Positions 32,197 through 63,357 of a stretch of DNA of 64,000 nucleotides are shown here, piece by piece; the first letter of the stretch is position 1, and the number at the start of each line of letters is the position of its first letter. This DNA is from Terriglobales bacterium. Lineage in GTDB: Bacteria; Acidobacteriota; Terriglobia; Terriglobales; SCQP01. Where the stretch lies: NCBI GenBank assembly GCA_050747905.1, contig JBOGKQ010000013.1, forward strand, positions 3,529 to 67,528. Reading direction: 5' to 3'. The position numbers were made by a program, and so were the translations under genes. The notes under the pieces are model-generated. The model had not been told where the DNA came from. It saw only the letters and a program-made list of their open reading frames with translations, and did not search any database.

Positions 32197-32290
32197 AGTT
32201 GCCTTCCCGGTTTCGTCATCCTCATGTAATCAAGACGCAGGCCAGCCGACGGGCGTGACCGCCGGCGGCAAGAAAAAGGAGACCATCGCC

Positions 32291-33655: not shown

Positions 33656-33734
33656 TGGCGCGAATCATGGAATGCCTCCCCGGCCCGCTGCGGTCCGTGA
33701 TGCAGGACCGCAACAAGCCGCTGGAAATCGGGCG

Positions 33735-34953: not shown

Positions 34954-35085
34954 CAAAAGCTGTAGTGATGAAACTGCGACATGACGCCGAAGAAATGCAG
35001 CATGGCATCGTGCTGGTCGGCTTCCATCGCATCCGCCCGCCGCTTGATCGCCGTTTCGCAGAGGATTTGCGCCTTGCTCGTTTTC
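34954..35085 (-). pseudogene. Truncated second ArdC N-terminal fragment
   Basis: About three quarters identical by eye to 34420-34550. Reads ...KAQILCETAIKRRADAMEADQHDAMLHFFGVMSQFHHYSF* and ends abruptly. Confidence 0.6.
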
Positions 35086-35184
35086 ACAGCGCCCCTTTCG
35101 GGGGCAAAGCCAAAGGCGCTCGCTTGCGACGCATCGAGATCGAGGTCCCGGTTGAGGTGGCGGGCTATACTGCCACTACCGCCA

Positions 35185-35841
35185 ATGAGCCTGATCAGGT
35201 CAAAGAAACGTGTTGCCGATCATGGAGAGGTTTTCACCCCTCCGTGGCTGGTCGAGGCGATGCTCGACCTCGTCAAGGGTGAGTCCGAGCGCATTGACTC
35301 GCGCTTCCTGGAGCCGGCGTGCGGTAGCGGAAACTTCCTCGTCCGGATTCTGCGACGCAAGCTCGCCGCCGTACAGATCAAGTACGGCAAGTCGGACTTC
35401 GAGCGCCGGAACTACGCCCTGCTCGCACTGATGTGCATCTACGGCATCGAGTTGTTGGGGGACAACGTTGCCGAATGCCGCGCGAACCTGCTCGAGATTT
35501 TCGCTGATTACCTGAACTTGGATGAACCGGGCGAACTATCCCGCGCAGCGTGCTGCGTACTGTCGCAGAATGTCGTGCATGGCGACGCGCTGGCGATGCG
35601 TGCCTCCGATGGCCAACCAATAACCTTTGCCGAGTGGGGCTACCTCGGCGCGGGCAAGTTTCAGCGGCGCGATTTCCGGCTCGACATCCTTACCGGTGCG
35701 TCCGCCTTCAGCGCGGAGGGCTCCCTCTTCGCCCACTTGGGCAAGCATGAAATCTTCACCCCGGATAAGACCTACCCGCCAATGACCGTGAGCGAGCTGG
35801 CCGCCGCCGCACACGGCGGCACGCCGAAGGAGGCCGCATGA
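35185..35841 (+). CDS. Methyltransferase-like SAM-binding protein lacking the NPPY catalytic motif
   Basis: GEVFTPPWLVEAMLDL (motif X), FLEPACGSGNFL (motif I), IYGIELL. No (D/N/S)PP(Y/F) anywhere in the 218 aa. ATGA overlap with the next gene. Confidence 0.6.
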   Translation: MSLIRSKKRVADHGEVFTPPWLVEAMLDLVKGESERIDSRFLEPACGSGNFLVRILRRKLAAVQIKYGKSDFERRNYALLALMCIYGIELLGDNVAECRANLLEIFADYLNLDEPGELSRAACCVLSQNVVHGDALAMRASDGQPITFAEWGYLGAGKFQRRDFRLDILTGASAFSAEGSLFAHLGKHEIFTPDKTYPPMTVSELAAAAHGGTPKEAA

Positions 35842-37445
35842 GCACGCAGGTTGGTTTTGCGCTGCGCGGCCGCAATCCGGATGTGCTTACGTGCATCGCG
35901 AACCTCTCAAATGACGAGGTGTTCACGCCCCCCGAGTTTGCGAACCGGATGCTGGACACGTTGACCGAGGCATGGGCCGCGAACCACAGTGGCGCGGATA
36001 TTTGGGCGGACGGGACGGCGACGTTCCTCGATCCGTGCACGAAATCAGGCGTCTTCCTGCGCGAGATCACCAGCCGCCTTAACAAGGGTTTGGCCGGTGA
36101 AATCCCGAACAGTCAGGAGCGCGTCGATCACATCCTGAACAAGCAGGTGTTCGGCATCGGGATCACGTATCTCACAAGCTTGCTGGCGCGTCGCAGCTTG
36201 TATTGCTCGAAACACGCCAACGGCGAGCATTCGATCACGAGGGGCTTCGAGAGCGACGCCGGCAACATTTGGTTCGAGCGTATCGAGCACGCGTGGGCGG
36301 GTGGCAAATGCAGGTACTGCGGGGCGAGCCAGAAGGCATTGGACCGCGGCGAGGCGCTCGAGACCCACGCCTACGGTTTTATTCACACCGGCGAAATCAA
36401 AGCTCGGATCGCCGAGCTGTTTGGAGGCGAAATGCAGTTCGACGTGATCATCGGCAACCCGCCGTACCAATTGGACGACGGCGGCTATGGCACAAGCGCG
36501 GCGCCGATTTACCAGTTGTTCGTGGAGAAGGCGCTCGAGCTCGATCCGCGCTACGCTGTGTTTGTGACGCCGTCGCGCTGGATGGCCGGGGGTAAGGGGC
36601 TCGACAAATACCGCGAGCGGATGCTCTCCGACAAGCGGATACGGCGTATCGTTGACTACCCGAAACTCTACGAGGGATTTCCGGGAGTGAAAATTCGCGG
36701 CGGCATTTCCTATTTTTTGTGGGACCGCGAACACCGCGGGCCGTGCATGGTGCAGACGATTTGGGACGGCCAGCCGACTGGCCCGGCGGTTGCGCGCCAC
36801 CTGGACGAGTTCGACGTCCTCGTTCGGCGCAACGAGGCTGTGCCAATTCTGAAAAAGATTAGGGCCAGAGGCGAGCCCACGCTCGATCGGAGCGTCTCCA
36901 GCCGTAAGCCGTTCGGATTCGCCACGAATTTCAGAGGGAAGCCGTCCGCGGCGGGTTTGAAGAGGCCCGTAAAGCTCTTCGAGAACCAGCGGGTCGGCTG
37001 GGTCGAACGAAAGGCTATTGCCGTTAACTCCGAATGGATTGACGACTGGAAGGTTCTCATGACGGCTGTCCAGGGGACGAGCGCGGCCGTCGAGACCAAG
37101 TTTTTGAGCAAGCCAGTCATCGCCGAGCCGGGAACAGCGTGTAGCGAGACGTATCTTGTCGCTGGCCATTTTGAGACCGAGAAAGAAGCGACCAACTTTG
37201 CGCGCTACCTGCGTGCTCGGCTTGTGCGCTTTCTAGTCTCACTGCGCAAGCCCACCCAGCACGCGACGCGCGACGTTTATTCTTTCGTCCCGCAGCTCCC
37301 GCTCGATCGTGTCTGGACAGACGCCAAGCTCTACAAGAGGTACGGGCTAACCAAGGCCGAGATCGCCTTCATCGAGTCGCAGGTCGCCGAACACGATGGC
37401 GAATTATTCGACGAGGTCGCTGTGGGCGAAACCGAGAATGAGTAG
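35838..37445 (+). CDS. N6-adenine DNA methyltransferase (Eco57I-methylase-domain type, gamma-class order)
   Basis: NDEVFTPPEFANRML, FLDPCTKSGVFL and FDVIIGNPPYQ (motif IV). Long C-terminal domain, presumably for target recognition. GAAGGAGG lies upstream. Confidence 0.85.
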   Translation: MSTQVGFALRGRNPDVLTCIANLSNDEVFTPPEFANRMLDTLTEAWAANHSGADIWADGTATFLDPCTKSGVFLREITSRLNKGLAGEIPNSQERVDHILNKQVFGIGITYLTSLLARRSLYCSKHANGEHSITRGFESDAGNIWFERIEHAWAGGKCRYCGASQKALDRGEALETHAYGFIHTGEIKARIAELFGGEMQFDVIIGNPPYQLDDGGYGTSAAPIYQLFVEKALELDPRYAVFVTPSRWMAGGKGLDKYRERMLSDKRIRRIVDYPKLYEGFPGVKIRGGISYFLWDREHRGPCMVQTIWDGQPTGPAVARHLDEFDVLVRRNEAVPILKKIRARGEPTLDRSVSSRKPFGFATNFRGKPSAAGLKRPVKLFENQRVGWVERKAIAVNSEWIDDWKVLMTAVQGTSAAVETKFLSKPVIAEPGTACSETYLVAGHFETEKEATNFARYLRARLVRFLVSLRKPTQHATRDVYSFVPQLPLDRVWTDAKLYKRYGLTKAEIAFIESQVAEHDGELFDEVAVGETENE

Positions 37446-39969
37446 ACCCATCGATGAGATCCTCGCACCGAAGCCGATTGCGCGGCCGAAGATCTACGCC
37501 TACTCGATTGCCGACGAGGCGCACGAGGGCCTCCTTAAAGTCGGACAAACCACCCGCGACGTGAAACTACGTGTGGCCGAACAGGTAAGGACCGCCGCCA
37601 TCAAGAACTACCGCATCGAGCTCGCCGAACCTGCCGAGCGCGACGTTGGGTCAGTCTTCACCGATCACGAGGTGCGTGCGGCTCTCGTAAGGAAGCGCTT
37701 CGAAAACGCCGACTTGGAATGGATGCGCTGCACCGTCGACGACGTGAAGACGGTTCTCGCCGAGCTTCGCGCCGGCCAAGAATTCACCGGGAGGCATTTT
37801 GCAACGTTCAAAATGCGCCGCGAGCAGACGGAGGCGGTGAAGAAAACCCACGCCTACTACCACTCGATCTGGAAGGAGGACATGCACGCCGTCCCGCGCT
37901 TCCTCTGGAACGCGAAGATGCGCTTCGGCAAGACTTTTACTGCCTATCAGCTCGCCAAGAAACTTGGCGCCAAGCGCGTGCTGGTCGTGACGTTCAAGCC
38001 CGCCGTCGAGGATTCCTGGCAGACCGAACTCGATGGCCATACGGACTTCGAAGGCTGGCAGTACCTCTCGAACTCCTCCGGCCGCGACCCGACGCAGGTC
38101 GAGCGTGGGAAGCCGGTCGTCTATTTCGGCTCGTTCCAGGACCTGCTCGGGCGCGATGCCGTCGGCAATATCAAGCCCAAGAATGAGTGGCTCCACGAGG
38201 TGAATTGGGACCTCGTGGTTTTCGATGAATACCATTTCGGAGCGTGGCGCGAGACCGCCAAGGAACTGTTCGAGGGCGAGGAGGATTCGAAGACCGAGGC
38301 CAAGCTCGAATACGACACCGGACTTGAGGAGGTGAATGAGGACCTTACTGTCCTGTCGGAGAAAGAGAGAGAGTTTCTCCCCATCACGACTAAGGCCTAT
38401 CTGTATCTCTCCGGGACGCCGTTCAAGGCGCTGGCCACGGGCGAATTCATCGAAGAGCAGATCTTCAACTGGACGTATACGGACGAGCAGCGCGCGAAAG
38501 AGGATTTCGCGAACGGGAACCCTGGAAAATGGAACCCTTACGGCGCGCTGCCGCAGATTCGACTGATGACGTACCAGATGCCGGATGAGCTGGTGGCGAC
38601 AGCGAGCGCCGGAGAGTTCGACGAGTTCGATCTCAACGAGTTCTTTGCCGCGACCGGCGCGGACAAAGGGGCACACTTTAAGCATCAGAGCGACGTGCAG
38701 AAGTGGTTGGACATCATCCGGGGCCAGTACGTGCCGAAGGCCGTCGAGAGCCTCAAGACCGGCACACGGCCGCCGTTCCCCTATTCGGACGTGCGCCTGC
38801 TGCCGTACCTGCAACACTCGTTCTGGTTCCTGCCCAATGTCGCCGCATGCCACGCCATGAAGAACCTGCTGGCCGAGAAGCACAACACTTTCTGGCGCGA
38901 ATACAAAGTAGTCGCTGCGGCCGGGGCTTCGGCGGGGATCGGACTTCAGGCACTGCCGCCGGTGCGGAAGGCGATTGCGAGCGGGTTCGACACCAAGACG
39001 ATCACGCTCTCGTGCGGCAAGCTCACCACCGGTGTCACTGTGCCGCAGTGGTCATCCATCCTGATGCTGCGCAACCTGAAATCGCCTGAGACCTATTTCC
39101 AGGCGGCGTTCCGCGTGCAGTCGCCGTGGTCCATCAAGAATCCGAATGGTGACGACCCGGGCGAGGAAGAGATTCTCAAGCCCGTGTGCTTCGTTTTTGA
39201 TTTCGCGCCCACGCGTGCGCTTCGTCAACTCTCCGAATACGGTATCCGGCTCTCGCCCAACGAATCGAATCCGGAAAACGCCATCAAAGATCTCGTGTCG
39301 TTCCTGCCAGTGCTGGCCTACGACGGCGCGAACATGACGCAGATTGATGCGGGCGGCATTCTCGACATCGCGATGGCGGGCACCTCGGCCACGCTGCTGG
39401 CGCGCAAATGGGAGAGCGCACTGTTGGTGAACGTGGACAACGAAACGCTGGGCCGCATCCTGAAAAATCCTGAAGCTATGGCAGCGGTGGAACGCATAGA
39501 GGGCTGGCGCGCGCTGGGTGACAACATCATTGAGACCATTATCAACAAAAGCGTAAAGGTCAAGGACCTCAAGAACAAGGCCAGAGACAAGGAGTTGACG
39601 AAGAAGGAGAAGAGCGTCCTCACCGAGGAGGAGAAGGAATACAAGTCCAAGCGCAAACTGGTGCAGGAGAAGCTGATCAAGTTCGCGGCACGCATCCCGG
39701 CGTTCATGTACTTGACGGACTTCCGCGAGAACACACTACAGGACGTCATCACCAAGTTGGAGCCGGATCTGTTCCTGGCTGTCACCGGTCTGACGGTCAA
39801 GGACTTCCATCTGCTCGTGCGCCTCAAGGTGTTTAACACCGAGCAAATGAACCAGGCGGTTTTCGCGTTCCGCCGCTATGAGGACGCTTCGCTGCGGTAC
39901 GCCGGCATCGAAAGCCACGAAGGGCTCTCCCATTACGGGCTGTACGATACCGTGGTGGGAAGGGAGTGA
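37438..39969 (+). CDS. GIY-YIG/T5orf172 nuclease domain fused to an SF2 (ResIII/SNF2-like) helicase; putative restriction subunit
   Basis: N-terminus KIYAYSIADEAHEGLLKVGQTTRDVKLRVAEQ is T5orf172-like. MRFGKTFTAYQLA is Walker A; VVFDEYHFGA is the DExH box. C-terminal helicase lobe. 8-nt overlap with the methyltransferase stop. Confidence 0.8.
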   Translation: MSRPIDEILAPKPIARPKIYAYSIADEAHEGLLKVGQTTRDVKLRVAEQVRTAAIKNYRIELAEPAERDVGSVFTDHEVRAALVRKRFENADLEWMRCTVDDVKTVLAELRAGQEFTGRHFATFKMRREQTEAVKKTHAYYHSIWKEDMHAVPRFLWNAKMRFGKTFTAYQLAKKLGAKRVLVVTFKPAVEDSWQTELDGHTDFEGWQYLSNSSGRDPTQVERGKPVVYFGSFQDLLGRDAVGNIKPKNEWLHEVNWDLVVFDEYHFGAWRETAKELFEGEEDSKTEAKLEYDTGLEEVNEDLTVLSEKEREFLPITTKAYLYLSGTPFKALATGEFIEEQIFNWTYTDEQRAKEDFANGNPGKWNPYGALPQIRLMTYQMPDELVATASAGEFDEFDLNEFFAATGADKGAHFKHQSDVQKWLDIIRGQYVPKAVESLKTGTRPPFPYSDVRLLPYLQHSFWFLPNVAACHAMKNLLAEKHNTFWREYKVVAAAGASAGIGLQALPPVRKAIASGFDTKTITLSCGKLTTGVTVPQWSSILMLRNLKSPETYFQAAFRVQSPWSIKNPNGDDPGEEEILKPVCFVFDFAPTRALRQLSEYGIRLSPNESNPENAIKDLVSFLPVLAYDGANMTQIDAGGILDIAMAGTSATLLARKWESALLVNVDNETLGRILKNPEAMAAVERIEGWRALGDNIIETIINKSVKVKDLKNKARDKELTKKEKSVLTEEEKEYKSKRKLVQEKLIKFAARIPAFMYLTDFRENTLQDVITKLEPDLFLAVTGLTVKDFHLLVRLKVFNTEQMNQAVFAFRRYEDASLRYAGIESHEGLSHYGLYDTVVGRE

Positions 39970-40099
39970 GGGGTGCGGGCCTTGCCTCAATAGAGCAATG
40001 TCGAGGTACCGGGACTCCCGAGCGGTGCCTTGCCTGAACATCTTGGTGGAATATGCCGATCGCAGCAACGTGGCGGCCTGTTATGGTCGAAGCCGGCAG

Positions 40100-40698
40100 T
40101 CACGGCGGCGCTGGTCGAGACCACCGCCTACACCGTCTGGTTCAGCGATTTGCTGGCAGGGTTGAAGGTGTAGCTGATCTTCGGCGACGCCGCCAAACTG
40201 GCGGCGATCGGGGTGCTGTAGGTGAAGGCCGACCGCCGCGTCGCCGAGCAAATGCTGGAAGCCTATCTGCGAGGCCAGTTTCCGGAGGTGAAGATGGCGT
40301 GGCCGGAACAGCGCGGCCTGCGGGAGCTGCTGCTGCTGCACCGGAACCGGCTGGTGTGGACCCGAACCCGGTTCAAGGACGGGCCACACCTGCTGGCCAT
40401 GAGACGGGGGATCAACCGCAAAGCTGGGCTGTTCAGCCCGGCGTGGCGGCAGGTGCTGAACCAGTTGCGGTTGAGCCGATGGGAGAGCGAGGCGCGCAGC
40501 GATCTGTTGCTGGCGCCGGATGCCTTGAAGCCCCGCATCGGGGAACTGGACCAGGCGGTGAAAGAGGCGGTGCGTGCCAATGCCCTGGCCGAGCGCTTGC
40601 GCACTCATCCCGGAGCCGGGCCAGTGACGACGCTAGCTTGGGTGCAGATCATGGGCGATTGCCGGGATGCTACGATTGTGGGGTTTCAAGAGGCTTGA
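40100..40698 (+). pseudogene. IS110-family transposase relic (both ends missing, two in-frame TAG codons)
   Basis: Frame reads AALVETTAYTVWFSDLLAGLKV*LIFGDAAKLAAIGVL*VKADRRVAEQMLEAYLRGQFPEV...LLLLHRNRLVWTRTRFK...HPGAGPVTTLAWVQIMGD. TAG codons at 40171-40173 and 40219-40221. No DEDD N-terminus or C-terminal Transposase_20 region. Confidence 0.7.
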
Positions 40699-40704
40699 GC
40701 GCCA

Positions 40705-41319
40705 ATGGGCTGTTTTCTCTGCTCTCCCGATCCGGCGTTGGTCTACGCAGCGAACGCCGAGGCTTTCGCGCTGTGCGGACTGGGGCCCCTCGTGCGCGGT
40801 TATAGCATCGTTGCGACGCGAGCCCACGTCCGATCCTGCGCCGACTCTGCCACGGAATCCCCGTCGCTCTTAGAATTCACCGAGCAGATCAGGGGATTTT
40901 TGGGCTCGATCTACGGGTCCTGCTTGGTCACGGAGCACGGGCGCCTGCCGGTCTGCGCCAGGTCAGAGGGCTCGGGGGGACACTGCTTCCACGCACATTT
41001 CCTGCTATTTCCCCGAGCCCCCGACATTGTCAATGCCTGCCGGCCCTATTTTGGACTGGCAGAGGCCACCAGCGGCCTCGGGCCCACAATGGCCCTTGCC
41101 TGCGGACGACAAGAATATTTTCTTGTGGCACCGACGCCCACCGAGTGCTGGATCATGACTCGGCCACTCCTCCTATGCCGCCAGTTCGCACGCCGGATGG
41201 TCGCCGATCGGCTTGGCATCCCCGAGGAGGCGGACTGGGCGATGCACCCCAAAGCCAACGCCGCAGAGTCGGAGGCCGAACACCTCCGGCGCCGCGTGCT
41301 AACGTGGGCGACGCCGTGA
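40705..41319 (+). CDS. HIT-like (histidine-triad fold) protein
   Basis: N-terminal CFLC. GLGPLVRGYSIVATRAHV parallels D..P...GH.LV.PK.HV. GGHCFHAHFLLFPR parallels the HxHxHxx-PR triad. Confidence 0.6.
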   Translation: MGCFLCSPDPALVYAANAEAFALCGLGPLVRGYSIVATRAHVRSCADSATESPSLLEFTEQIRGFLGSIYGSCLVTEHGRLPVCARSEGSGGHCFHAHFLLFPRAPDIVNACRPYFGLAEATSGLGPTMALACGRQEYFLVAPTPTECWIMTRPLLLCRQFARRMVADRLGIPEEADWAMHPKANAAESEAEHLRRRVLTWATP

Positions 41320-42530
41320 ACCAGAACAGGGTGGCCGTTCTGCTTGAAAAGCTTGCGGAGAAATTCGACACCGCCATCCAACAGGAAGGAGGCGCGACGT
41401 CCCAGTGGGGATGGGGGCAGTTCCTGGACGATTCAAAAGAACGGAGGCAGATCGGGCCCTACGGCACGTCAGCTGGCATGATCGTGAGGGCCCTTGCCCA
41501 GGGCGTAGGCGCAGCACCTGACGCGAGGCCTTCGGCGATCATAACCAGCTGGTGGCGCGAGTGGAAATCCGGGAGCGGGAGCGGGCGCAAGGTGTTCTGC
41601 CAGAACCTTCGGCTCGCATTCTTCCTGCTCGCGCTCCGCCTGTCTTCAATTGATGCTGCCCTCTCAGCCGAGGCCGAAGAGGAACTCCTAAAGCGAAACC
41701 TGGGCGACGACATGTGGGGGGATTACTGGGAATCCGATACGGACCACGACATGACCCCAAGCCATCTCGTTACATCTACGGTTGTGCTCGCATTTACGCT
41801 ATGCCAGCCAAGCCCCGAAGGGCAGACGGTATCGCGGCTGAGAAGATCCGTTGTTCGGCTCGAGCAGCGCTTGCTCGGCGACCCGCAGATGCCGGCCCTC
41901 CAAGCCTCATTCGCGGCCGCAGCAATAATGGCCCTTGGACCCCAAAACGCAAGAGCCATCAGAAAGCAAATCGCGCGATTTGCCATGTCGCGCGATTTTT
42001 CGCTCGCCGACCTCGGGGTGTACTTTTACGAGTACAAGTGTGACGGCAAGGCCGGCACGGATTACTTCATAGCGCCCCCGGCCATTGTCCTGGCGACCGG
42101 GGCATTCAGCTCGTCTTCCCCGATCCTTCTCCGGCAATTTGGCGAACAAGTTGCCGCACGCCTGGCGAAGAGCTTAGAAAAAAGCGACTACGGCTTCAAG
42201 CCGGACGCCGAGCAGAGAGTGTCAACGAAGAATCAGGCTTGGGCCGCGCTCCTGCTTAAGGCCTCGTTATCGCCAAACGCCAATCCGACCAGCCTCGCCG
42301 GCATGGTGTGGTACGGACTACTGCGGGAGCGTCCGGGTAACTGGTGGACCGAAATTGTCTTCCCAGTGGCTTTGATCGCGGCCAGCGCCACCGAGGCGAC
42401 ATTCATAGGTAAGCTCGGCATCGGTTGGCTCTTCGCGGCCGCGACCCTTGGCCAGGCGGCCGTCTTCGGTATTGCAATTCGCCACCTCCTCCCGTACTGG
42501 GACCGACTGTTCCCCACGGCACGCTCATGA
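41316..42530 (+). CDS. Hypothetical helical-repeat protein with C-terminal TM helices
   Basis: GTG start inside a GTGA overlap with the upstream stop. SQWGWGQF...GPYGTSAGMIVRAL and MWGDYW...HLVTSTVVLAF resemble alpha/alpha-toroid (prenyltransferase/terpene-cyclase-like) repeats. The C-terminus WWTEIVFPVALIAASA...IGWLFAAATLGQAAVFGIAI is hydrophobic. Confidence 0.55.
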   Translation: MNQNRVAVLLEKLAEKFDTAIQQEGGATSQWGWGQFLDDSKERRQIGPYGTSAGMIVRALAQGVGAAPDARPSAIITSWWREWKSGSGSGRKVFCQNLRLAFFLLALRLSSIDAALSAEAEEELLKRNLGDDMWGDYWESDTDHDMTPSHLVTSTVVLAFTLCQPSPEGQTVSRLRRSVVRLEQRLLGDPQMPALQASFAAAAIMALGPQNARAIRKQIARFAMSRDFSLADLGVYFYEYKCDGKAGTDYFIAPPAIVLATGAFSSSSPILLRQFGEQVAARLAKSLEKSDYGFKPDAEQRVSTKNQAWAALLLKASLSPNANPTSLAGMVWYGLLRERPGNWWTEIVFPVALIAASATEATFIGKLGIGWLFAAATLGQAAVFGIAIRHLLPYWDRLFPTARS

Positions 42531-43795
42531 CCATTTTCGACCCGATCTACGGACCCTGCGATCTGGCGCCGAGGCTCGCCGAGCTGGCGCTTGCCCCGGA
42601 GGTTCGGCGCCTCACCCAAATTCGACTGCTAAATACATCCAGCCCAACTCTTGCCACCCTGGGGGAGCTGCGGCGATACTCCCACACTCTGGGCGTCCTC
42701 AGGCTCGCTCTGATCAACGGGCAACCCGGATACTCCCCGGAGGAAAGGGCCGCCTTTGCCGCGTCCGTTTTGATACACGACATTGGGACCCCGCCCTTCG
42801 GTCACCTGATGGAATACCACCTCCGCGAGCAGCTTAGCTGGAGCCATGAGGAGGTCGTTGCCCGCATGCTTTGGGGTCTGCACACCGACGAGAATCTTTC
42901 CCACCAGATATTCGCCGGTATGACTCTGGAGGTGCGACGCATACTGAAAAGGCGGAGGATTTCTCTCGACATTGTTCGGAAGATACTTACGAAAGACCAC
43001 CCGCTGTCCCGGTTGCTGTTCGGGAGCATCGATCTCGACAATCTCGACAACGTCGCGAGAATGGCCTGGGCCGTCGGCATCACCTGTGTGGACTCAACCC
43101 TGGCCCTTGCGGCCGCTCTCTCGGTCTCCAGAGACGGTCGGCTGCTGCTCCCTGAATCGTGCCGACCTGCGGTGGAGCGTTGGGCAGGAACGCGGCGCAG
43201 CGTCTACGAAATTCTTCTTTTCGATCCCGCCACGGTAGCGAGTCAAGCGGTGCTCTCAAAGGCCATTGGCATCGCCATGACGGCAGGTGACATCGGCGGC
43301 GCGGACTGGTGCATGTACGACGAGACGCTTCTGGAGAAGCTCCGCCAATCACCGGGCACCCGCAAGCTCGTTACGTCTTTCCTCGGGCGCCTGCCAGGCC
43401 CTATATACGCGTTGAATTTGCGGGGGACTCTGGCGAGCTATGGCCTCGGGAACCGAGCGGCCGCGGTCGGGGCCGCCCTTTCGTCCCTGGGAGCACATCG
43501 GAGCGGCGACTGCATCGCGTATGCATTTGTGGACAAGGGCGCGACTGCCAAGGCCCTTGAATTTGCGGATCCTGCGTCGGGCAGAACGTGGTGCTTTGGC
43601 GAAACCTCCGAGAGCGTGGTATTCTCCGTGTTCTCATACGGTCGCCCCGAGAGAAAGGAGGCTACTGCGGCCGCCTCGCGGCTACTCCGCACCCTCGGCG
43701 CGCGGCCAGATGACGTGATCCGCGTGCAAATTGGTCGTGACCGTCCGGCATATAGCTCTGGCAATGACAAACAGCTTACTCTCCAGGCTCTCTAA
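42527..43795 (+). CDS. HD-domain phosphohydrolase, SAMHD1/dGTPase-like
   Basis: MTIFDPIYGPCDL, RYSHTLGVLRLA, VLIHDIGTPPFGHLMEY and GSIDLDNLDNVARMA follow the H...HD...D order of dNTP triphosphohydrolases. ATGA overlap upstream. Confidence 0.8.
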   Translation: MTIFDPIYGPCDLAPRLAELALAPEVRRLTQIRLLNTSSPTLATLGELRRYSHTLGVLRLALINGQPGYSPEERAAFAASVLIHDIGTPPFGHLMEYHLREQLSWSHEEVVARMLWGLHTDENLSHQIFAGMTLEVRRILKRRRISLDIVRKILTKDHPLSRLLFGSIDLDNLDNVARMAWAVGITCVDSTLALAAALSVSRDGRLLLPESCRPAVERWAGTRRSVYEILLFDPATVASQAVLSKAIGIAMTAGDIGGADWCMYDETLLEKLRQSPGTRKLVTSFLGRLPGPIYALNLRGTLASYGLGNRAAAVGAALSSLGAHRSGDCIAYAFVDKGATAKALEFADPASGRTWCFGETSESVVFSVFSYGRPERKEATAAASRLLRTLGARPDDVIRVQIGRDRPAYSSGNDKQLTLQAL

Positions 43796-44918
43796 AATCG
43801 ATTGGGACTTCGCCGGCTACATGAGCGAGTCGTCGTTTTCGGCGGTCCATTTCCACCCTAGCCGCTTCGCCTCCCAAATTCCAGCGGCTCTGATCGGGCT
43901 TATGAGCAGACCCGGAGACCTCGTTATGGATCCGTTCTGCGGCTCTGGCACCACCCTCGTCGAAGCGCAGCGCCTGGGTAGAAGGTCAATCGGGATAGAA
44001 CTCAACCCGGTTGCCGCGATGGTTAGCCGCGCTAAGACCCAGTGCAAATCCGCGAAGCGAATCGGTGCCGTCATCAGAGACCTCAAGGAGCAGGCGGAGG
44101 CAACAATTCGGGCAGGCCACATCTTCGTCCGCTCGGGGCCAGCGACCACTCCGGCTACGGTGCAGGCAAGCAAGTGGTACGGCCCCAAGGTCGCGCGGGA
44201 CTTGGGCTTGCTCTGGGCAGCGAATCTGAAGCTTACTGGCGTCCACCGGCTGCTCGCCGACACGGCCTTCTCCGCCATCCTTTTGACGGTCTGCAGGGAG
44301 ACGCGACACTGGGGCTACGTCTGTGACAACACGACCCCAAAGGGCCAGCGCAATGCAGACGTGCTAAGAGAATACTGTGCCCTGCTTGAGCGCCTTGCCC
44401 GGGCATATCGCGACCGGGACGAAGAGATGGAGGTCGCCGGGCACACGCTCCCAGCCGCCACGGTACTGTCAGGCGACGCATTGCAGGTGATGGAAGGCAT
44501 AACTAAGTCGACCGTAGATTTGGTCGTGACATCGCCGCCGTACTTCGGCGTCTGCGATTACATAAAGGCGCAGCGGCTCACGATGGAGTGGCAGGGCACC
44601 AAAATTGAGCCGCTCCGAGCCGAGGAGATTGGGGCTAGAAGCAAGCGCCACAGGAAGACCGCCGCTTGCGAATACATCGAAGCAATCAGTCGGGCTTTCC
44701 AATCCATGGCCCGTTGCGTGCGGCCTGGCGGGGGTCTCGCGATCGTGCTGGGCCAGTCCGACACCCGCGATGAGGTACTGAATGATCTCAGGGCGGCAAT
44801 CTCAGCGGCCAAGATGTCAATCGAGCAAGAGCTAAACCGCACGGTATCGACCCAGCGGCGACTCGCACCCAGCTTGCGGGGCGAACATCTGTTTATCCTG
44901 TCGGCGAGGCAACGATGA
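43764..44918 (+). CDS. SAM-dependent methyltransferase (DPFCGSGTT motif I followed by SPPY motif IV)
   Basis: IDWDFAG...VHFHPSRFASQIPAALIGLMSRPGDLVMDPFCGSGTTLVEAQRLGRRSIGIELNP, then VDLVVTSPPYFG. The start is uncertain (43764 or 43821). Confidence 0.75.
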   Translation: MTNSLLSRLSKIDWDFAGYMSESSFSAVHFHPSRFASQIPAALIGLMSRPGDLVMDPFCGSGTTLVEAQRLGRRSIGIELNPVAAMVSRAKTQCKSAKRIGAVIRDLKEQAEATIRAGHIFVRSGPATTPATVQASKWYGPKVARDLGLLWAANLKLTGVHRLLADTAFSAILLTVCRETRHWGYVCDNTTPKGQRNADVLREYCALLERLARAYRDRDEEMEVAGHTLPAATVLSGDALQVMEGITKSTVDLVVTSPPYFGVCDYIKAQRLTMEWQGTKIEPLRAEEIGARSKRHRKTAACEYIEAISRAFQSMARCVRPGGGLAIVLGQSDTRDEVLNDLRAAISAAKMSIEQELNRTVSTQRRLAPSLRGEHLFILSARQR

Positions 44919-45943
44919 CCCTTCGAGATTTGGGCGAGAGGCGCATTCTGAGGGAGGTCCTGCCAGAGTTCTGCCCGCTTGCGGGCGACGATTGCACCTT
45001 CCTAGCCCGCGACCTCTCCGGCATTGTGATCACCACGGACCCAGCCCCAGAGCCAGCCGCCAAGCTAATCGGCCGAGATGCGGACCCGTATTGGCTCGGC
45101 TGGCTGCATGTCACAATCAACGCTTCAGATATAGCCGCGGCCGGGGCGGCGCCCCTAGCCTTCGTTAGCGCGCTCGAGTTGCCGCCTGACTATGAGTTGC
45201 CCGATCTGAAGAGGCTCCTCGCAGGCACCAGGGAGTGCTGCGCGTTGCACGGGTTCACCTACGCCGGCGGGAACCTGAAAGAGGCCACCCGGGTTTCGGC
45301 CGTGGGGACTGCAATCGGCGCCGCAGAACCCCGGCGTGTGTTGGGCCGGGGCGGGGCACGGGCGGGCGACGTCGTCGTTAGCGTCGGCGAGTGCGGGATC
45401 TTCTGGCGGGACGCGCTGGCTGCGCATTCGGGCAAGGAAGTTGCGGACAAGGCACGCTCCCCGTTGTTCGCCCCTCGCGCCCAAACAGGGCCGATGCGGG
45501 CGCTTGCGGCGCAGGGTCTCATTACCGCAGCGATCGACAACAGCGACGGGCTACTCCCGTCACTTGAGCAGCTCGCTATAAGCAGCCGTGTCGACATCAC
45601 CGTCAATCTGGAGAACCTCGTCCCCCCTCCTGACGCTCCTGCCGGCCTCGATCCCGCTCGGCTTTGGCTAGGCTGGGGTGACTGGAACGTGGTCGCCACG
45701 ATGCGGGTCGGCGACCTGGCGAGCGCTAAACGGCTGGTTGCGCACGAGGGCGTGCCGGTTACGCCGATCGGCTACTGCTCGCCGGGCACCGGTAGCGTAG
45801 TCCTAGAGAGGGCAGGAAGGCGCTCTATCGCGCCCCGCCTTGAGTCCGAACGGTTCGCGGCAGATTCGTGGTTCGGAACCGGCGTAGACGGCTACATTAA
45901 ACTGATAAGGACGGTCGAATTACCCTCGCCCCCGACCCTGTAA
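44915..45943 (+). CDS. PurM/ThiL-fold ATP-utilising enzyme (AIR-synthase-related protein)
   Basis: LGERRILREVL...GDDCTFL...VITTDPAPEP...GWLHVTINASDIAAAGAAP...YAGGNL...GARAGDVVV follows the ThiL/PurM pattern. ATGA overlap upstream. Confidence 0.8.
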   Translation: MTLRDLGERRILREVLPEFCPLAGDDCTFLARDLSGIVITTDPAPEPAAKLIGRDADPYWLGWLHVTINASDIAAAGAAPLAFVSALELPPDYELPDLKRLLAGTRECCALHGFTYAGGNLKEATRVSAVGTAIGAAEPRRVLGRGGARAGDVVVSVGECGIFWRDALAAHSGKEVADKARSPLFAPRAQTGPMRALAAQGLITAAIDNSDGLLPSLEQLAISSRVDITVNLENLVPPPDAPAGLDPARLWLGWGDWNVVATMRVGDLASAKRLVAHEGVPVTPIGYCSPGTGSVVLERAGRRSIAPRLESERFAADSWFGTGVDGYIKLIRTVELPSPPTL

Positions 45944-46363
45944 GGCGCGAATCCAAGGCGGAGCTCGTGCAAAGGACGGTCCTCGCGTTTAGAGAGCCGT
46001 CATTTTCGATGGATGGCGACGACGTTCCATTCTGCCCGAGACTGGTATGTATAAGTGCTTGAGCCAAAACGATTGCGCAACGCTGCCCAGGAACAGGTCC
46101 GCGATACTGCCAAGATGGCCGGAGCCGGGCTAGATCAAGCCGAGGGACTGCAAAAGCCTTGCCTGACATTGTGGTCGGCACTTCGCGGGATTTCAACACG
46201 ATCCTTGAAGTGGGTGGGGCCGATGCCGTGTTCGTCAGTATACGCCCGCCACCGCCGCGCTCGCATGGCTGAGCAGCGTCGAACCTGCGTGATCGGCAGG
46301 CCAGCGGTCAAGACACCGCATGCGAAAGTGCCCCGCTGCCGATGCGCATCGCGGGCCATGCCA

Positions 46364-47185
46364 TTATCCCGAAAGCGCCCTTGTCACGGTACGCTCTGCA
46401 TAGTACGCGGGATCGTGCTTGTCCTGCCGGCATTCGGCAAGTGCCTGCTTTACCTTCTCTGGGGACATGCCGGCCCGGAGCTGGTCACGCACCCAAGCCC
46501 AGTCGCGCTCGGACTGGCTCAGAAGTCGCGCATCGCGCCGAAATCTCCCAGGGGCGGCCTGCCGACTGGCCGGTCGGTCTAGGGGCCAATCCGCTGGCAG
46601 AGCGGCGAAGTCACCTCGCTGGTAGACAGCTTCGGCGAGGCGATGCCCCTGAACACCGACCGGCTCATTGAACTTCTTGTTGTGGAATCCGGGCAGGCGC
46701 AACACACGGGCAGCGTCTGTTGCGGCAGGATCGCCACCAAACGCGGCGGCCATGCGGTGCAGGGCGACCTCGGCTTGCTCAAGCGTGAAACCTTCGACCT
46801 TCCAGATGACCTGGCGTTTGGCGGGCGAAGTGTCCAGGACGAAGTTCGGCTGGGGCAGCGCGGGACTGTCGAGGATTTGCTGGAGCCTTGCATCGCCCTC
46901 TTCGTCGAGGTCAAGGTAGAGATGGCGGATATCGGCGATGTCCGCTTTGGCGCGACCCCTGGCTTCGGACTTGAGCGTATTCATGGAGACGTAAATGTCT
47001 GAGCCGTGGGCGTTCTCGTAACGGAGGAAGCGCTGGATGCGGGGCGAAGCTGCATCCTGGGCTGACAGCAGCCGCTGGAGGGTGTAGTCCTCGGCACGGT
47101 TGCGGATCACGATGGCTATCCGGTCATGGGGGCGGTAGTTTTCCTTGATGAAGTCCCACGAAGTGACGGGCGCATTGGATTCCAT
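46364..47185 (-). CDS. RepB/TraC-type primase (AEP primase-polymerase fold) of a plasmid or ICE
   Basis: DIYVSMNTL, LYLDLDEEG and LRLPGFHNKK, plus a C-terminal helical domain. Start MESNAPV (cat 47183-47185) is preceded by AAGGAGG. Confidence 0.7.
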   Translation of the reverse strand: MESNAPVTSWDFIKENYRPHDRIAIVIRNRAEDYTLQRLLSAQDAASPRIQRFLRYENAHGSDIYVSMNTLKSEARGRAKADIADIRHLYLDLDEEGDARLQQILDSPALPQPNFVLDTSPAKRQVIWKVEGFTLEQAEVALHRMAAAFGGDPAATDAARVLRLPGFHNKKFNEPVGVQGHRLAEAVYQRGDFAALPADWPLDRPASRQAAPGRFRRDARLLSQSERDWAWVRDQLRAGMSPEKVKQALAECRQDKHDPAYYAERTVTRALSG

Positions 47186-47199
47186 GTATGCCTCCTTGC

Positions 47200-48264
47200 T
47201 CACTCGCATTGGTAGAGCGGGTTGAACTGATGCCGGTCGGATTCGGCATCGACTCCGGCAAGCTCGATAATCTCGGCGACCCGGCGCCTGCCGGACGCAC
47301 GCTCCAGGTGAACGATGACCTGGATCGCGTCAACGATTTGCGTCTGGAGCGCGCGGTGCGGAATATCGAGGCCAGCCTGCAGAATGCAGCTTCGCAGGCG
47401 CGTAATCGCCTGCCGGGCCGTGTTGGCGTGGACTGTAGAGAGGCTCCCGGAATGGCCAGTATTCAGCGCCTGCAGCAGGTCGTAGGCTTCCTCGCCCCGT
47501 ATCTCGCCCACGATCAACCGGTCCGGCCGGTGGCGGAGGCTGGCGCGTACCAAGTCGCGAATCGCGACGGCCGGCAGGCCCATCTATTCGCGGCGGGCTT
47601 CGAAACGGACAAGGTTGGGTTTCGCGGCATGAATCTGCGCCGTGTCCTCGATCAGCACGATCCGGTCGCCATCGGGGATGGCCGCCGCCAGGATGCCCAA
47701 CAGTGTCGTCTTGCCGGTGCCGGTTCCACCGCTGATGAGGATATTCTGCCGACGGGCGATGCGTTCCCGCAGTATCTCCGCGGCCTGGCGCGGAACCGAG
47801 CCGCGCTTGATTAGGTCGTCCATAGTGAAGTGCCGCGTGTCAAATTTTCGGATCGTCAGCGAGATGCCGTCCACGCTGCAAGGCGGTAGGACGGCGGCGA
47901 CGCGGCTCCCGTCCGGCAGGCGCGAGTCGAGAATGGGCTTTTCCTCCGAGATTTCATCGCCTAGGCTGCGGGCGATGATCTTCAGGCCGGTGAGCAGTTG
48001 CCGCTCCTCGATTGCGATCCCCGGCGCTTCCTGCAGAAGCCCGTCGCGCTCGATAAAGACGCGCCGCCCGCCGTTGACCATGATCTCGCTGATGCCTGGG
48101 TCCTCGATCAGGTGCCGGATCGGCTCCAAGAACGGGAGAATCAGCTCGAACCGGGACGCTTGTGCGTCGGCGACTCGGGGGTTATTGCCCCCGGCGCTCC
48201 CGTTGGTCGCTACGCGATTCGGCAAAATCGCGGGCATGCTCAACTCTCCTCCGGCATCGTTCAT
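47200..48264 (-). pseudogene. VirB11/TrbB-type type IV secretion ATPase interrupted by one in-frame TAG (47584-47586)
   Basis: Upstream part: ILISGGTGTGKTTLL (Walker A), IVLIEDTAQI. After RRE* the same frame continues MGLPAVAIRDLVRASLRHRPDRLIVGEIRGEEAYDLLQALNTGHSGSLSTVHA. Confidence 0.8.
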
Positions 48265-49280
48265 AGCTCTCCGGCGCGCAACTGCGCCCAGTAGGACTTC
48301 TCCCGATCCAGGTACCAGGGCTTGAGGTAGCAGTAGGTGGCCTCGTGCTGGTTCACGCCGTCAAATGGGATGACGATGCACTCGGCGTTGCGGAGCAGCG
48401 TAAAGCTGCGCTCGTCGAAGATGAAGTCCTTCTGGGTGGCGTAGGTCTTGGTCGCGCTGATTGTGTCCTTGTTCGACACGGTCTTGCCGGTAAGCAGGCT
48501 GACGCGGGCGTCGGTGGACGCCTCGGACAGCCCATAGCTGACCTTGAGCCGGTCTTCCTTGCCGCACAGCGTAGCCGCCGTCTGGATCGAGAACTCGTCC
48601 GATTGGGCGAGGAAGATCTTGGTGCGGAAGGTCTGGAGCAGCGTCCGCCAGCCTTCGCCGGCGAGGGCCTCCTTGAGCGAGGAGATGCTTTGGGTGGCGA
48701 TGATCGGGATGCAGCGGGCCTGGCGCGACATGCTAAAGAACTTCTCATCGCCGTTCGGGTCGTTCCCGCCGACGGTGGCGAAGTTCTGGTACTCGTCACA
48801 GACGAAGAACGTGTCGCGGTGATGGCGATGCCGCTCCCGCTCCATGGCGGGAATGCGCAGCAGCACCGCACGCTGGAAGTCGAGCTTCATCATGGTGCCA
48901 ATGGCCTTGGCCAGTCCGGGGTTGAGCGCCATGGGGAAGTTCAGGGCGCAAACCTTGCCCTGCTCGACCAGTGCCGCAAACGGTGGCAGCGGAATGCCCT
49001 CGGGATCGTCGGGGGTGGACCCGTTTGTATACACCTCTCTGGGTGGGCAGAAGATGCGCTTCACGTCGGGGTTGTTGTCGAAGAGCGACAGGAAGACCGA
49101 GATGCCCTCGACGATGGAGGTCCTGAGCTTGTGGTCAATGGCCAGCCAGTCGTCGTGGAACCAGCGGCGCACCGCCTCGAACTGGGCTCGCTTGTATTCC
49201 TGGGCCGGCTCCAGCGGCTTCGGGACAGCCTCGACCGCGTCGTCGAATTGGTGCTCGGCGAGGACGCCTTCGGCCTCCAT
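48261..49280 (-). pseudogene. Type IV coupling protein (VirD4/TraG/TraD-like), C-terminal part only
   Basis: FFVCDEYQNF (Walker B region), IIATQSISSL. No TM segments or Walker A. The frame is closed by a stop about 90 nt upstream of 49280. ATGA overlap with the VirB11 start. Confidence 0.65.
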
Positions 49281-49407
49281 CCCGAGCGCTTCCTCCGGCG
49301 GGCGCCGTGCCCGCCGGACCCGCCCTCCCAGGTCTGGATCAATCCGCCAAAAAAGGAGGTAAAAGCTCTCTAAACTCCCACCTCAGGTGTCTCACTCTCA
49401 TTGACAC

Positions 49408-49565: not shown

Positions 49566-52500
49566 TTACGGCATGTAGATTATAGATTGCACGGCATAGT
49601 TGCCGTTGCTGTCCTCGATCGAGATCTGCCAGATGTAGGTCCCTCCGCTGGTCAGGCTTGCCACGGAAGGCGTATTGGAGCTGTCTCCGGTCGGATCGGT
49701 CCCCCAGACGATTTGCGTGATCGAGCTGGAGAAGTAGCTGCTGTTGGAGTTCTGGCTCGGGATCTGCCAGATCGTGTTGTTGTTCGAATCCACAATCTGG
49801 AACGAATAGGTGTAATTGCTGGCATCGGTCGGATCGGTCCAGGTGAAGGTCGGCGTGGTGCCGCCGGTCGCCGACAGGTTGGTCGGGAACTCGGTGATCA
49901 GGGCCGTAACCTTGGTGGTGAGCGTGTCCGATGTGCCGTCACTGTAGTTGATCTGGAAGCTGTAGGTGTCGCCGACGACCGGAGCGATGGGGATGTTGAG
50001 GTTGTACTCGAACCCCCCGCCGCAATAGTTGCCGCAAACGCTGACGTCCACGGGAACCACGTTCGGGCCGGACTCCAAATACACCGACACCGGCAGTTTG
50101 ATATTTCCCGTCACCGTGAATTGAAGGCTGTAGTTTTGCCCGATCTGGCTGCCGCTCTGGTTCTCGGACTGATAGTTCTGGGTGGCCACCGCGGCGGTGG
50201 CGTTGGCGCTGGCCAGCGTCAGGTTCAAGGTGGTGGCTCCAGTAATCGTCTGGCTCGCCTTCACGCCGCTGCCGCCGACGTTGGTGATATCGCCGGCGTC
50301 CACCACGCCGTCTTTGTTGTTGTCCAGAATGCCGACCGCGGAGCAGTTGGAGCCACTGGGCACTTGGACTGTGTAGGCTTGCGGGCTGACCGGAGAGGCG
50401 ATGTAATCGCCGTAGAATTGGCCCGCTTTCTGATCGTAGCAGCCGGCGTAGAGAGGGCCGGTAGCGGTTCCGGTGAAGGTGACCGCGCCGGATACCGTGT
50501 CGGCGCCGGTGGGCGCGCCGACCGTCACCGCGCTGGAGACCGCGGAATAGGAACTGGTCGAGCTTCCGGCGGTGCCGGAGGCGCGGAAATAATAGGTGCC
50601 GTTGGCGAGGCCGTTCACCAGCCAGACGGTGCTGCTATCGGGGCCGGTCGCGGGGAAGGTCTTGCTGCCGGTGACGGTGCCGAACGAGGAGTCCGTGCTC
50701 CACTGCAGGGTGTAGGAGGTTGCCAGCTCGAGGCCGTTGTTGTCTACCTGGGGATTGTAAATCACCAGCGCGCCGGTGTTGACGCCGGCTAGCGTTGCCA
50801 GTTCGGGGCCGAGGGTGAGGGTTACCGCCGCGGCAGGGGTCATGGTGACGGACGCGCCGGTTACGTCCGCGTTGGAGACCGTAATGCCGGTGGTGCTGCC
50901 GCTCGGGTTGGACGCGTTCGGGGCGCCGTAGCCCAAGTTGTCCATGCGCGCCTGCAGGGTATAGGTGCCGGGCGCCACGCCGCGGATGGTGAAGGCGCCC
51001 GTCGAGGAAATGCTGGTGCCGGGGACGGTGTAACTGGGGCAGCTGTTGTTGCTCAGGGTGAGGTAAATCCGGCCCGTGTCCGAGCCGCTGTAGCTGACCG
51101 TGCCGGAGACGGTGTAGCCCAGGCCGACGCTGAAGTTCTCGCTGGTGAGGTTGGCGGTGGCGATGGTGACCGCCTGGGTGGCGGGCGAGAAGGTCGTAGT
51201 TGCGGAACCGGGCGCGCTGTAGGTTGGCGTCAGCGTATAGGCGCCGGTGGCGAGGCCGGTGATGGTGAAGTTTCCGCTGCCGTCGGTGGTGGCCGTCCCC
51301 ACCGTTTTGTTGTTCGAGTCGGTGGCGGTGATGGTGACGCCGGAGACGGAATTGCTGCCGGTGCAGCTGGCGAACGTTTGCACCGACCCGCTAGCCGAAT
51401 AGCTCGTGGTGACGGCGATGGTGTAGGTCTTCGGCCCGACGGTGGCGCCGTTGCTATCGGTCACCGACGCGGTGAAGGTGACGGTGCCGGTCGCGGTGGG
51501 CGTTCCGGTGACGTTCAGGGTGCTGGTGCCGGTGTTGGAGACGCTGAGGCCCAAGCCGTTGGTGAGGGCGACGGCGGCGCCGGTGGTGGCGAGGGCGGCG
51601 CCGTTGACCGTCCAGGTGTAGCCCGGTACGCCGCCGGCGGCGTTGATGGCGCCGGTGTATGCGCCGCTGGTGGAGGCGGCGGGCAGCGAAGCCGGGTTCG
51701 GCGCCGGCAGCGCCAGCGCGGCATAGGCCGCGAGGTTCAGGCTGGCGGTGCCGGCCGCGCCGCTGGAATCCTTCACCTGGAAGGTGACGCTGCCGCTGCC
51801 GGTGGCCGTGGGCGTGCCCGAGAGCACACCCGCGCTCGATAGCGTCAGGCCGATCGTGGTCAGCGTGCTCTGGCCCGCAGTGACCGACCAGGCGTAGGGG
51901 GCGCCGCTGCCGCCGCTGGCCGCCAGCGTGGTTGTATATGCGGTGCCGACGTAGGCGGGCGGGAGGGTGGCAGTGGTGACTGAGGGCGCATTGCTGACGG
52001 TGAGCGAGAGCGCCTGGGCGGCCGAGGTGACCCCGCCGATGGTCACCGTGACGGAAAAGTTGAACGGCCCGCCGGTCGCGGTGGGCGTGCCGCTGATGAT
52101 GCCGGTCGCCGGAGCCAGGGTGAACGGCGCGGGCAGGGTGCCGCTGGACACCGCCCACGTCGCCGCGCCGGTCTGGCCATCGGCATTCGCAGTAAGCGTG
52201 GTGGTGTAGAGGACTCCGACCGAAGCCGTCGGAATCGAGGTCGTGGTCACGTCCGGCGCGCCGGCGCCGAGGGTGAGCGTCAGCGACGCCTGCTGGGTTT
52301 GTTTCGGCGTGCCCGCGTCGCTGACGGTGAAGGCGATGGCGCCGGTATTGGTCGCCGTGGGCGTGCCCGAGATGGCGCCGGTGGCCGCGTTCAGGGTCAG
52401 ACCGGCCGGCAACGTGCCCGACGACCAGACATAGGGGGTCACGCCGCCGCTGGCCGCCAGCGTGGCCGAATAGGCGACGCCGGCGGTGCCTGCGGGCAGC

Positions 52501-62336: not shown

Positions 62337-62396
62337 CGCTCGGGTGGCGCGAACCGCTAACCTCAACCGCGGCGGCGGCGTCCCGTCCATTTCGCA

Positions 62397-62685
62397 GGGG
62401 TCGCGCCGCTTTGCACCGTGGGCAAAATCGGCGCGAAAGCCGCGGAACCGAGTGAGGCGGCCCGCCCCCGGTTGGGTAAGCGGCGCGGCCCCTCACGGGC
62501 AGCCGCCTGGCCGCCCACGGCCAAGCGGCGCCCTGGCAGACCGCCGCAAGCGGGCTGAGGGCGGCCGCAGGCCGCCCGAGCCCCGCGCCTATCATTCGGG
62601 GCGGCTCATAAGCGGGGCGCGCGACGCAATTCGCCCTGCGCAGTCTTCCAGCAGGGCGAAGCCGCCGCGCTGGGGCCCGCGCCAA
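62397..62685 (-). repeat. Dispersed intergenic repeat family, long copy (inverted)
   Basis: ggggtcgcgccgctttgcaccgtgggcaaaatcggcgcgaa ... ccgcgctggggcccgcgccaa carries both terminal modules in inverted orientation. Confidence 0.8.
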
Positions 62686-62705
62686 TATTGACGCTCGCCC
62701 GGATT

Positions 62706-63275
62706 TTATCTTTTCCCGTGCTGCAGCGTCAGGCACATCGCCACCGCCGTGGTGGGGTTGATGGCGTCGCCCGAGAACTGAATCTTGCGGATGATTCCCT
62801 GCTTGTCGACCACGAAGGTCGTGCGCTGCGCAAACTGCATGGGGTATCCCGCCATCGTCCGTGGCGGCTCCAGAATCCCGTAGCGCTGCTCCACGATCCC
62901 GCGCATGTCGCTCAGCAGCGGGAACGTCACCCCGATCTGCTTGGCGAAAACGCCATTGGCCGCCGGACTGTCCATGCTGATCCCGAAAATGACCGCGCCG
63001 TTCTGCTGGATTTTAGCCAAATCAACCTGATAGGCCTTGAGTTCCTTCGTTCAACCGGGTGTGAACGCGAGCACGTAAAACGCCAGAATTACGCTCTTCT
63101 TGCCGCGATACTCGCTCAGGTGCACCGGCTTGAACTGGTTACTGGGCAGGGTGAAGTCCGGCGCCATCTGCCCCACCTTCAGTTGCGTGCGTATGAGTTG
63201 CGGCGCTTGCGCCGCGGCCGCCGCCGTCAGCAGCAGGGCCGTCACCAAGGCGGCTAGAAAAGCGGGCTTGCGCAT
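62706..63275 (-). CDS. Secreted peroxiredoxin (AhpC/TSA/Bcp-like) with in-frame TGA at the peroxidatic-Cys position: candidate selenoprotein, or a nonsense pseudogene
   Basis: One continuous frame reads [25 protein letters not shown]...[49 protein letters not shown]... The TGA is at 63051-63053. The family consensus is F(Y)P..FTPGCT.E. GGGAGAA lies upstream of the ATG at 63275. Confidence 0.7.
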
Positions 63276-63357
63276 CGGGTTCTCCCTGCGCAGCAGTATA
63301 ACCCGGCCCGCTCCTTTCGCAGGCAGGAAAAAAAGCGGCACCGGGCGAGGGGCTCGC

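Follow-up and report, generated by a model that had tools for sequence, protein, structure and literature searches.

Peroxiredoxins with a TxxU motif (PF00578) are an established family of bacterial selenoproteins (PMC13188914, PMC12013277). PrxU was described in 2001, and a count in 2006 arrived at 12 genes with five inferred changes from Cys to Sec. According to the criteria for a bacterial SECIS (bSECIS) hairpin, the apical loop has 3–9 nt, the upper stem at least 4 bp, and the loop lies 16–37 nt from the UGA (PMC13188914, Fig. 2). In addition, the apex takes the form N1-G-[G/U]-N-N2 with a G in the first two loop positions, and the folding energy is −7.5 kcal/mol or lower (PMC13188914). 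Acidobacteria are among the phyla listed as Sec users (PMC1794560), and Occallatibacter riparius, which belongs to the order Terriglobales, is a documented Sec user with three known selenoproteins (PMC12013277). We analyzed a 64-kb stretch of DNA (64,000 nucleotides, hereafter the window) from a Terriglobales MAG. One gene in the window very probably encodes an exported (periplasmic) AhpE-like peroxiredoxin of which the peroxidatic residue is Sec, and we regard it as a new member of the known kind of Sec-containing peroxiredoxins, in an acidobacterial branch that is AhpE-like and bears a signal peptide.

The window protein shares a predicted Sec at the peroxidatic position and the AhpC/TSA fold with the Bcp-type reference WP_011365628.1 and with PrxU of Eubacterium acidaminophilum. 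The Sec context is STPGUTKE in WP_011365628.1 and FTPGUTKE in the window protein, but the identity between the two proteins is just 34%. Both the known Sec-peroxiredoxin family and the window gene have a UGA followed directly by a hairpin within the coding region, and both have Cys homologues. Unlike the known Sec-peroxiredoxins, the window protein has a predicted signal peptide, a Val in place of a Pro, and a conserved C-terminal Cys, and its clade is acidobacterial. The best sequence and structural matches were AhpE of Mycobacterium tuberculosis (a 1-Cys enzyme; PDB 1xvw/4x1u) and Bcp1/Bcp4/PrxQ of Sulfolobus (3drn, 3hjp, 2ywn). AhpE and the window protein have the same active-site layout. 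However, AhpE is a cytoplasmic Cys enzyme that retains the Pro of the active site and lacks a resolving Cys, whereas the window protein is predicted to be exported and to contain Sec, has Val in place of this Pro, and carries a conserved Cys within its last helix. We found no paper that names this acidobacterial clade, although broad selenoproteome surveys may count it as 'Prx'. The chances are roughly even that it is the first described clade of exported selenoperoxiredoxins of the AhpE subfamily that lacks the canonical Pro and is widespread in soil Acidobacteriota.

On the minus strand, one frame of 189 codons runs from 63275 to 62706; it ends with a TAA stop and is interrupted solely by the TGA at 63053..63051. 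In the original prediction the ORFs at 63051-63341 and 62706-63020 were proposed to be one frame broken by this TGA alone, and translation confirmed that they are the two halves of the 63275..62706 frame. Reading the frame from the sequence, we annotate 62706..63275 (minus strand) as a complete putative selenoprotein gene, the product of which has a predicted signal peptide and a domain of the AhpC/TSA type that is AhpE-like. The start ATG at 63275 is also used by the public gene call of the same sequence, and a putative Shine-Dalgarno-like GGGAGA (63281..63286, minus strand) lies 5 nt upstream of it. By eye, the translation begins with a Sec-type signal peptide, predicted to span residues 1 to ~22–24 (63204..63275, minus strand); it consists of MRK, a hydrophobic stretch of 19 residues, and then AAA|QA or AQA|P. 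An equivalent hydrophobic segment was present at the N-terminus of all homologues, and the pLDDT of this region was low in the AlphaFold model that we obtained for P0012, a Cys homologue. Codon 75 is the UGA (63051..63053, minus strand), which we propose to be read as Sec at the peroxidatic position (T72-P-G-U75, TxxU) in the context FTPG-U-TKE. Since TGA is the ordinary stop of many well-defined genes elsewhere in the window, the organism does not generally read TGA as a sense codon. No other credible gene with an in-frame TGA was found in the window; three candidates from adjacent ORFs and those from a scan of third-position G+C all proved to be normal boundaries between genes or artefacts in another frame.

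When the protein was joined with a Cys at the TGA, Pfam assigned residues 34–164 to AhpC-TSA (E-value of 2e-34; 118.5 bits against a curated cut-off of 26 for PF00578), and Redoxin was also matched. The scores for the NCBIfam models Bcp, PrxQ, PrxU, and Prx-SUH were well under their cut-offs, with 60.5 versus 270 bits for PrxU (NF040737) and 40.7 versus 298 bits for Prx-SUH (NF045827). The nearest solved structures by sequence were those of the Sulfolobus Bcp-type proteins and M. tuberculosis AhpE (E-values of 1e-21 to 5e-26). The AlphaFold model of P0012 (pLDDT 88.7) superposed best on AhpE (4x1u/1xvw) with a TM-score of 0.9 and 38% identity. The original family assignment thus needs a correction: AhpE is the subfamily nearest to the window enzyme, ahead of classical Bcp and AhpC.

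As had been predicted, the TGA falls on the codon that aligns with the peroxidatic Cys of the homologues. Thr72, U75, and Arg151 are in place in the window protein. An Arg at this position is the catalytic active-site Arg of peroxiredoxins, and at Arg151 (codon 62823..62825, minus strand; QRTTFVVD) 51 of the 52 sequences aligned have Arg. The Pro of the PxxxTxxC motif is replaced by Val68 (63072-63074, minus strand, by alignment) in the window protein, and the same replacement was found in all 34 Sec-form database sequences, whereas the Pro was kept in 12 of 16 Cys forms. The Sec clade has thus lost an active-site Pro that is generally taken to be invariant. Cys181 (codon 62733..62735, minus strand), which is a Cys in 50 of 52 sequences and sits in the last helix of the P0012 model, is a candidate resolving residue for an oxidised Sec75.

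We scanned relatives using one genome per GTDB species; more than 540 relatives were found, and the best 80 were retrieved. All of these 80 were Acidobacteriota MAGs, each the genome of a different species, with 50–72% protein identity, and they included members of Terriglobia, Acidiferrales, Acidoferrum, Sulfotelmatobacter, and other groups. Among the best 80 relatives and the window, the peroxidatic codon was TGA in 81 of 81 genes. It had been argued that the placement of the TGA at this one codon is not random, and its recurrence at exactly the same codon in all these orthologous genes is far beyond chance. In the same 81 genes, the frame was open and the residues were conserved on both sides of the TGA, with no indels nearby, and purifying selection acts on both sides. 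The same TGA was also present in an independent Logan assembly of the identical sequence. In more distant homologues, the equivalent site was occupied by Cys, and the codon was TGC or TGT in four loci (L081–L084). The comparison of orthologues that had been suggested as a check, Cys versus a conserved TGA with a hairpin, thus returned TGA in the best 80 relatives together with the conserved hairpin at 63036..63015 described below.

The database records of this family are inconsistent at the site. Among 51 full-length matches, the residue was Trp in 34, Cys in 16, and Gly in one. The full-length matches of the protein search were ~175–195 aa, and many other matches were ~103–114 aa and covered just the C-terminal 53–57% of the query. 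The C-terminal matches of ~104 aa are explained by gene callers that split the homologues at an unrecognised Sec codon. Trp at the site was found in full-length JGI entries, including the database proteins P0001–P0011. TGA encodes Trp in genetic code 4 and Gly in code 25, and the Trp and Gly entries probably come from gene callers that switch the genetic code on short contigs. For the same sequence as the window gene (L086:2414-2983, GCA_974122065.1), NCBI calls an ORF of 74 aa and another of 89 aa, and other gene calls in the family also give a separate C-terminal ORF of ~89–104 aa. The putative start codons of these C-terminal ORFs differ in both position and codon. A database look-up returned no exact-sequence record for the 104-aa C-terminal ORF.

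These records bear on two explanations in which the TGA is not recoded. If the TGA were a true stop, the locus would produce a 74-residue peptide and a separate C-terminal protein of ~90–104 residues, or only a short regulatory product. The 74-aa and 89-aa ORFs listed by NCBI and the many C-terminal database entries of ~104 aa are what this explanation predicts. However, neither half makes up a full peroxiredoxin fold, and the catalytic Thr would end up in a different product from the conserved Arg and Cys181. In addition, the C-terminal ORFs share neither the position nor the codon of their starts, and the frame across the TGA is kept in all 81 genes without indels. A true stop is thus very improbable. 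It is still less probable that the gene is a pseudogene or that an original TGC or TGT was altered by an assembly or sequencing error. A lone in-frame stop in an otherwise intact gene resembles a fresh nonsense mutation, and the local RNA fold is weak, but the TGA in 80 independent species genomes and in the Logan assembly, the strongly conserved amino acids downstream, and a dedicated RNA element after the TGA effectively refute this explanation. The TGA and the intact frame, shared by 81 of 81 genes, exclude both a pseudogene and a sequencing error. The original preference for Sec over pseudogenisation gained support from the conserved TGA, the frame conserved on both sides, the Cys in distant forms, and the SECIS-type hairpin.

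The hairpin initially drawn at 63043..63019 (AACUCAA/UUGAUUU) is present in the window as drawn, but its pairing across 74 sequences was 43.6%, no better than that of slid controls. We rejected it as the SECIS since it is unconserved, whereas an overlapping hairpin at 63036..63015 is conserved. This putative bacterial SECIS hairpin (63015..63036, minus strand) is 22 nt long, corresponding to alignment columns 18–39 counted from the U of UGA; it begins 14 nt after the UGA, and the spacing from UGA to the loop is 23 nt. The form in the family is GGCC-UAUCA-[G(G/U)C]-UGAU-N-U-GGCC, and that in the window is GGCC UAUCA [GGU] UGAU UU GGCU. The window copy has a lower stem of 4 bp, in which the pair at the base is G-U, a 1×2 internal loop, and an upper stem of 4 bp; it contains a U-U mismatch, and its G-G-U loop (63027..63025) is unique in the family. 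In the 63036..63015 hairpin 90.5% of the cells were paired, compared with 15–40% in slid controls. Compensatory changes were observed in three pairs: GC to AU five times at columns 18-39, CG to UA twice at 21-36, and UA to AU three times at 22-34. This covariation is limited, because the element is highly conserved and the sequences are phylogenetically related. An extension of the lower stem by pairing columns 13–17 with 45–49 was ruled out by the variability of these columns.

All 74 distinct orthologous sequences fold the hairpin, with a median energy of −7.5 kcal/mol (range −5.5 to −11.7 kcal/mol). The window copy (−5.8 kcal/mol for the 22-nt element alone) is among the weakest in the family. 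Seven outliers with altered amino acids refold the hairpin in a shifted register. Five of them (L010, L025, L034, L039, and L077) have an Ala-to-Pro change and form a perfect 9-bp stem with GGCA/UGCC, and in L046 and L063 the hairpin is re-formed, each in its own way.

The codons that encode the hairpin are also restricted. The third-position entropy was 0–0.55 bits in codons +5 to +12, compared with ~0.9–2.0 bits elsewhere. Tyr+7 was encoded by TAT in 78 of 78 cases, whereas Tyr−8 of the same genes was TAC in 75 of 81. Likewise, Asp+10 was GAT in 80 of 81 genes and Asp+27 was GAC in 66 of 81; Ala+9 was GCT in 58 of 58. This freezing of synonymous sites in codons +5 to +12 provides the strongest evidence for a putative RNA element in the coding sequence.

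The hairpin was missing from three of the four Cys homologues examined, and these three are the most distant. In one Cys form (L083), the residues QAYQ are kept and are encoded by GCC UAC CAG, yet the hairpin is missing, which indicates that the structure is not a by-product of the protein sequence. The Cys homologue P0012 (L082:102-662, GCA_030157205.1, JASDBB010699923.1), of which the codon is TGC, keeps a perfect copy of the hairpin (GGCG UAUCA GGC UGAUA U CGCC). We interpret this copy as a fossil SECIS that persisted after a recent change from Sec to Cys. In a rough neighbour-joining tree, the forms with Val and Cys occurred at three separate positions among the Sec forms, and the forms with Pro and Cys made up one separate clade.

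The family hairpin agrees with the bSECIS pattern in most respects. Its loop of 3 nt, G(G/U)C closed by an A-U pair, is within the allowed 3–9 nt, the upper stem has 4–5 bp, the spacing of 23 nt lies within 16–37 nt, and the apex is A-G-(G/U)-C-U with an invariant first G. As for the threshold of −7.5 kcal/mol, the family median of −7.5 is borderline and the −5.8 kcal/mol of the window copy falls short of it. Like the bSECISearch consensus and the E. coli fdhF SECIS, the acidobacterial element is a small hairpin that lies shortly downstream of the UGA and has an apex paired through N1 and N2. It differs from the bSECISearch consensus in being very short (22 nt, 8–9 bp, and a 3-nt loop) and in having a bulge on the 3′ side or a 1×2 internal loop. 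The family apex CAG(G/U)CUG appears to resemble the apex of E. coli fdhF, CAGGUCUG.

Single-sequence folding did not single out this element. The 67-nt region at 62990-63056 alone preferred another fold of −10 kcal/mol, which was weaker than that of shuffled sequences (z-score of +1.5). RNAalifold recovered the hairpin just in part from the 60-nt alignment, with an energy near zero. When the whole window was searched against Rfam, there was no match to the element at gathering thresholds, and noise alone was found near the site (E-values up to 10). The judgement in the original prediction that the SECIS evidence is marginal was thus fair for the window sequence by itself, but the comparative evidence is not marginal.

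The search for Sec-decoding genes covered the window and 86 fetched loci, and none of selA, selB, selD, and the tRNA-Sec gene was detected. For tRNA-Sec, the loci examined (~580 kb) were scanned with ARAGORN. A Pfam scan identified no SelA, SelB, or SelD among the 40 ORFs of the window, and tblastn with E. coli SelA and SelD gave no match in the window or the fetched loci. The AIRS-domain protein at 44786-45940 was rejected as SelD (31.7 versus 125 bits) and is ThiL-like instead. With SelA of Solibacter usitatus, taken from the supplement of PMC1794560, as a query, at least 120 close homologues were obtained, with at least 72% identity among the matches listed; these include entries named Acidobacteriia and Bryobacteraceae. 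The RpoN encoded in the window shares 100% identity with a protein from a Terriglobales MAG (GCA_974122065.1). The support for Sec use by the genome that carries the window gene is therefore only at the lineage level.

What the comparative evidence shows is recoding and a SelB-type hairpin; Sec as the amino acid and tRNA(Sec) as the tRNA are the very probable reading of it. It is conceivable, though improbable, that the UGA and the hairpin are recoded not, or not only, as Sec, but by a suppressor tRNA for Cys, Ser, or Trp or by near-cognate read-through. The candidates would be tRNA(Sec)-like allo-tRNAs, or a selC*-type tRNA(Cys)(UCA) with a SelB paralogue. Allo-tRNAs that may act as nonsense suppressors have been reported in Acidobacteria, and for delta-proteobacteria a selC* tRNA(Cys) has been reported that places Cys at the UGA codons for Sec (PMC5389517). 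The lack of genes for the Sec machinery in the window and the fetched loci and the occurrence of Cys forms within the clade would also fit such a recoding. On the other hand, the hairpin fits the SelB-type bSECIS pattern, SelA is widespread in Acidobacteria, a Sec user is known in the same order, and selC* is unreported from Acidobacteria (PMC5389517). Furthermore, Ser or Trp at the peroxidatic position would be inactive, and a plain TGC would suffice for Cys. Slightly less probable still is a non-canonical decoding by an allo-tRNA or a selC*-type tRNA that inserts Cys, or either Sec or Cys depending on the selenium supply. We favor UGA as Sec, because TGA is present in every close orthologue, Cys is present in distant ones, and a SECIS-type hairpin follows.

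If Sec is inserted, SelB-GTP carrying Sec-tRNA(Sec) would bind to the hairpin and deliver Sec to the UGA at the A-site. The full-length protein would then be exported through the Sec pathway, and the signal peptide would be removed. In the periplasm, the Sec75 selenolate may reduce peroxides and be converted to a selenenic acid, which would be resolved either by Cys181, giving a selenenylsulfide, or, in the manner of the 1-Cys enzyme AhpE, by an external thiol. A periplasmic reductant would finally regenerate the peroxiredoxin. No thioredoxin-like partner was found among the conserved neighbours, and the neighbouring genes point to no reductant.

In the window, the gene has an O-methyltransferase gene upstream and a convergent gene for a sedolisin-like protease. 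The G+C-rich spacer of 370 bp (62337-62705) lies between the convergent protease and peroxiredoxin genes; no intrinsic terminator was predicted on either strand of it, and a scan for promoters and terminators gave nothing useful. In about 64–66 of the 80 relatives, the peroxiredoxin gene is preceded by a response-regulator/HD-domain gene of the same strand, and a gene for a heme-copper oxidase subunit I-like protein is convergent downstream. This synteny is missing from the window.

Several other features of the window were recorded. A fluoride riboswitch (6900-6966, plus strand; Rfam RF01734, 41 bits) lies just upstream of the gene for the CrcB fluoride channel (6928-7422, plus strand) and overlaps its start region; a fluoride riboswitch ahead of CrcB is a textbook arrangement. 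The region of ~33700-49400 looks like a mobile or defence island. Its genes encode an ArdC-like protein, an Eco57I-type methylase, a ResIII helicase, an N6/N4 DNA methylase, a RepB primase, and a TraG/TrwB coupling protein, and the part at 42.4–47.8 kb has a third-position G+C of 0.68–0.73, which is lower than in most other ORFs of the window. A tRNA-Glu gene (27923-28000) and a tRNA-Ser gene (51639-51715) flank the wider island region. The AIR-synthase-family protein rejected above as SelD is encoded in the island on the plus strand (44786-45940), just downstream of a DNA methylase gene and overlapping its end; its ThiL-like score is below the curated cut-off (137 versus 184 bits). An AhpD/CMD-family protein with a CSVC motif is encoded at 32126-32776 (plus strand) and is a Cys form rather than a Sec form; in Occallatibacter riparius, this family has a Sec form with CPYU (PMC12013277).

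A gene with a proposed Sec codon is thus found in at least 80 acidobacterial species genomes, and public records split it or mistranslate it with Trp or Gly. Its recognition would correct a systematic annotation error and add an exported AhpE-like branch to the selenoperoxiredoxins. The very compact and marginally stable SECIS may explain why the family could be missed by SECIS searches that apply an energy threshold. The current understanding of Sec decoding is unaltered. In soil, Acidobacteriota rank among the most abundant bacteria, and the gene points to a selenium-dependent periplasmic defence against peroxides in soil bacteria.
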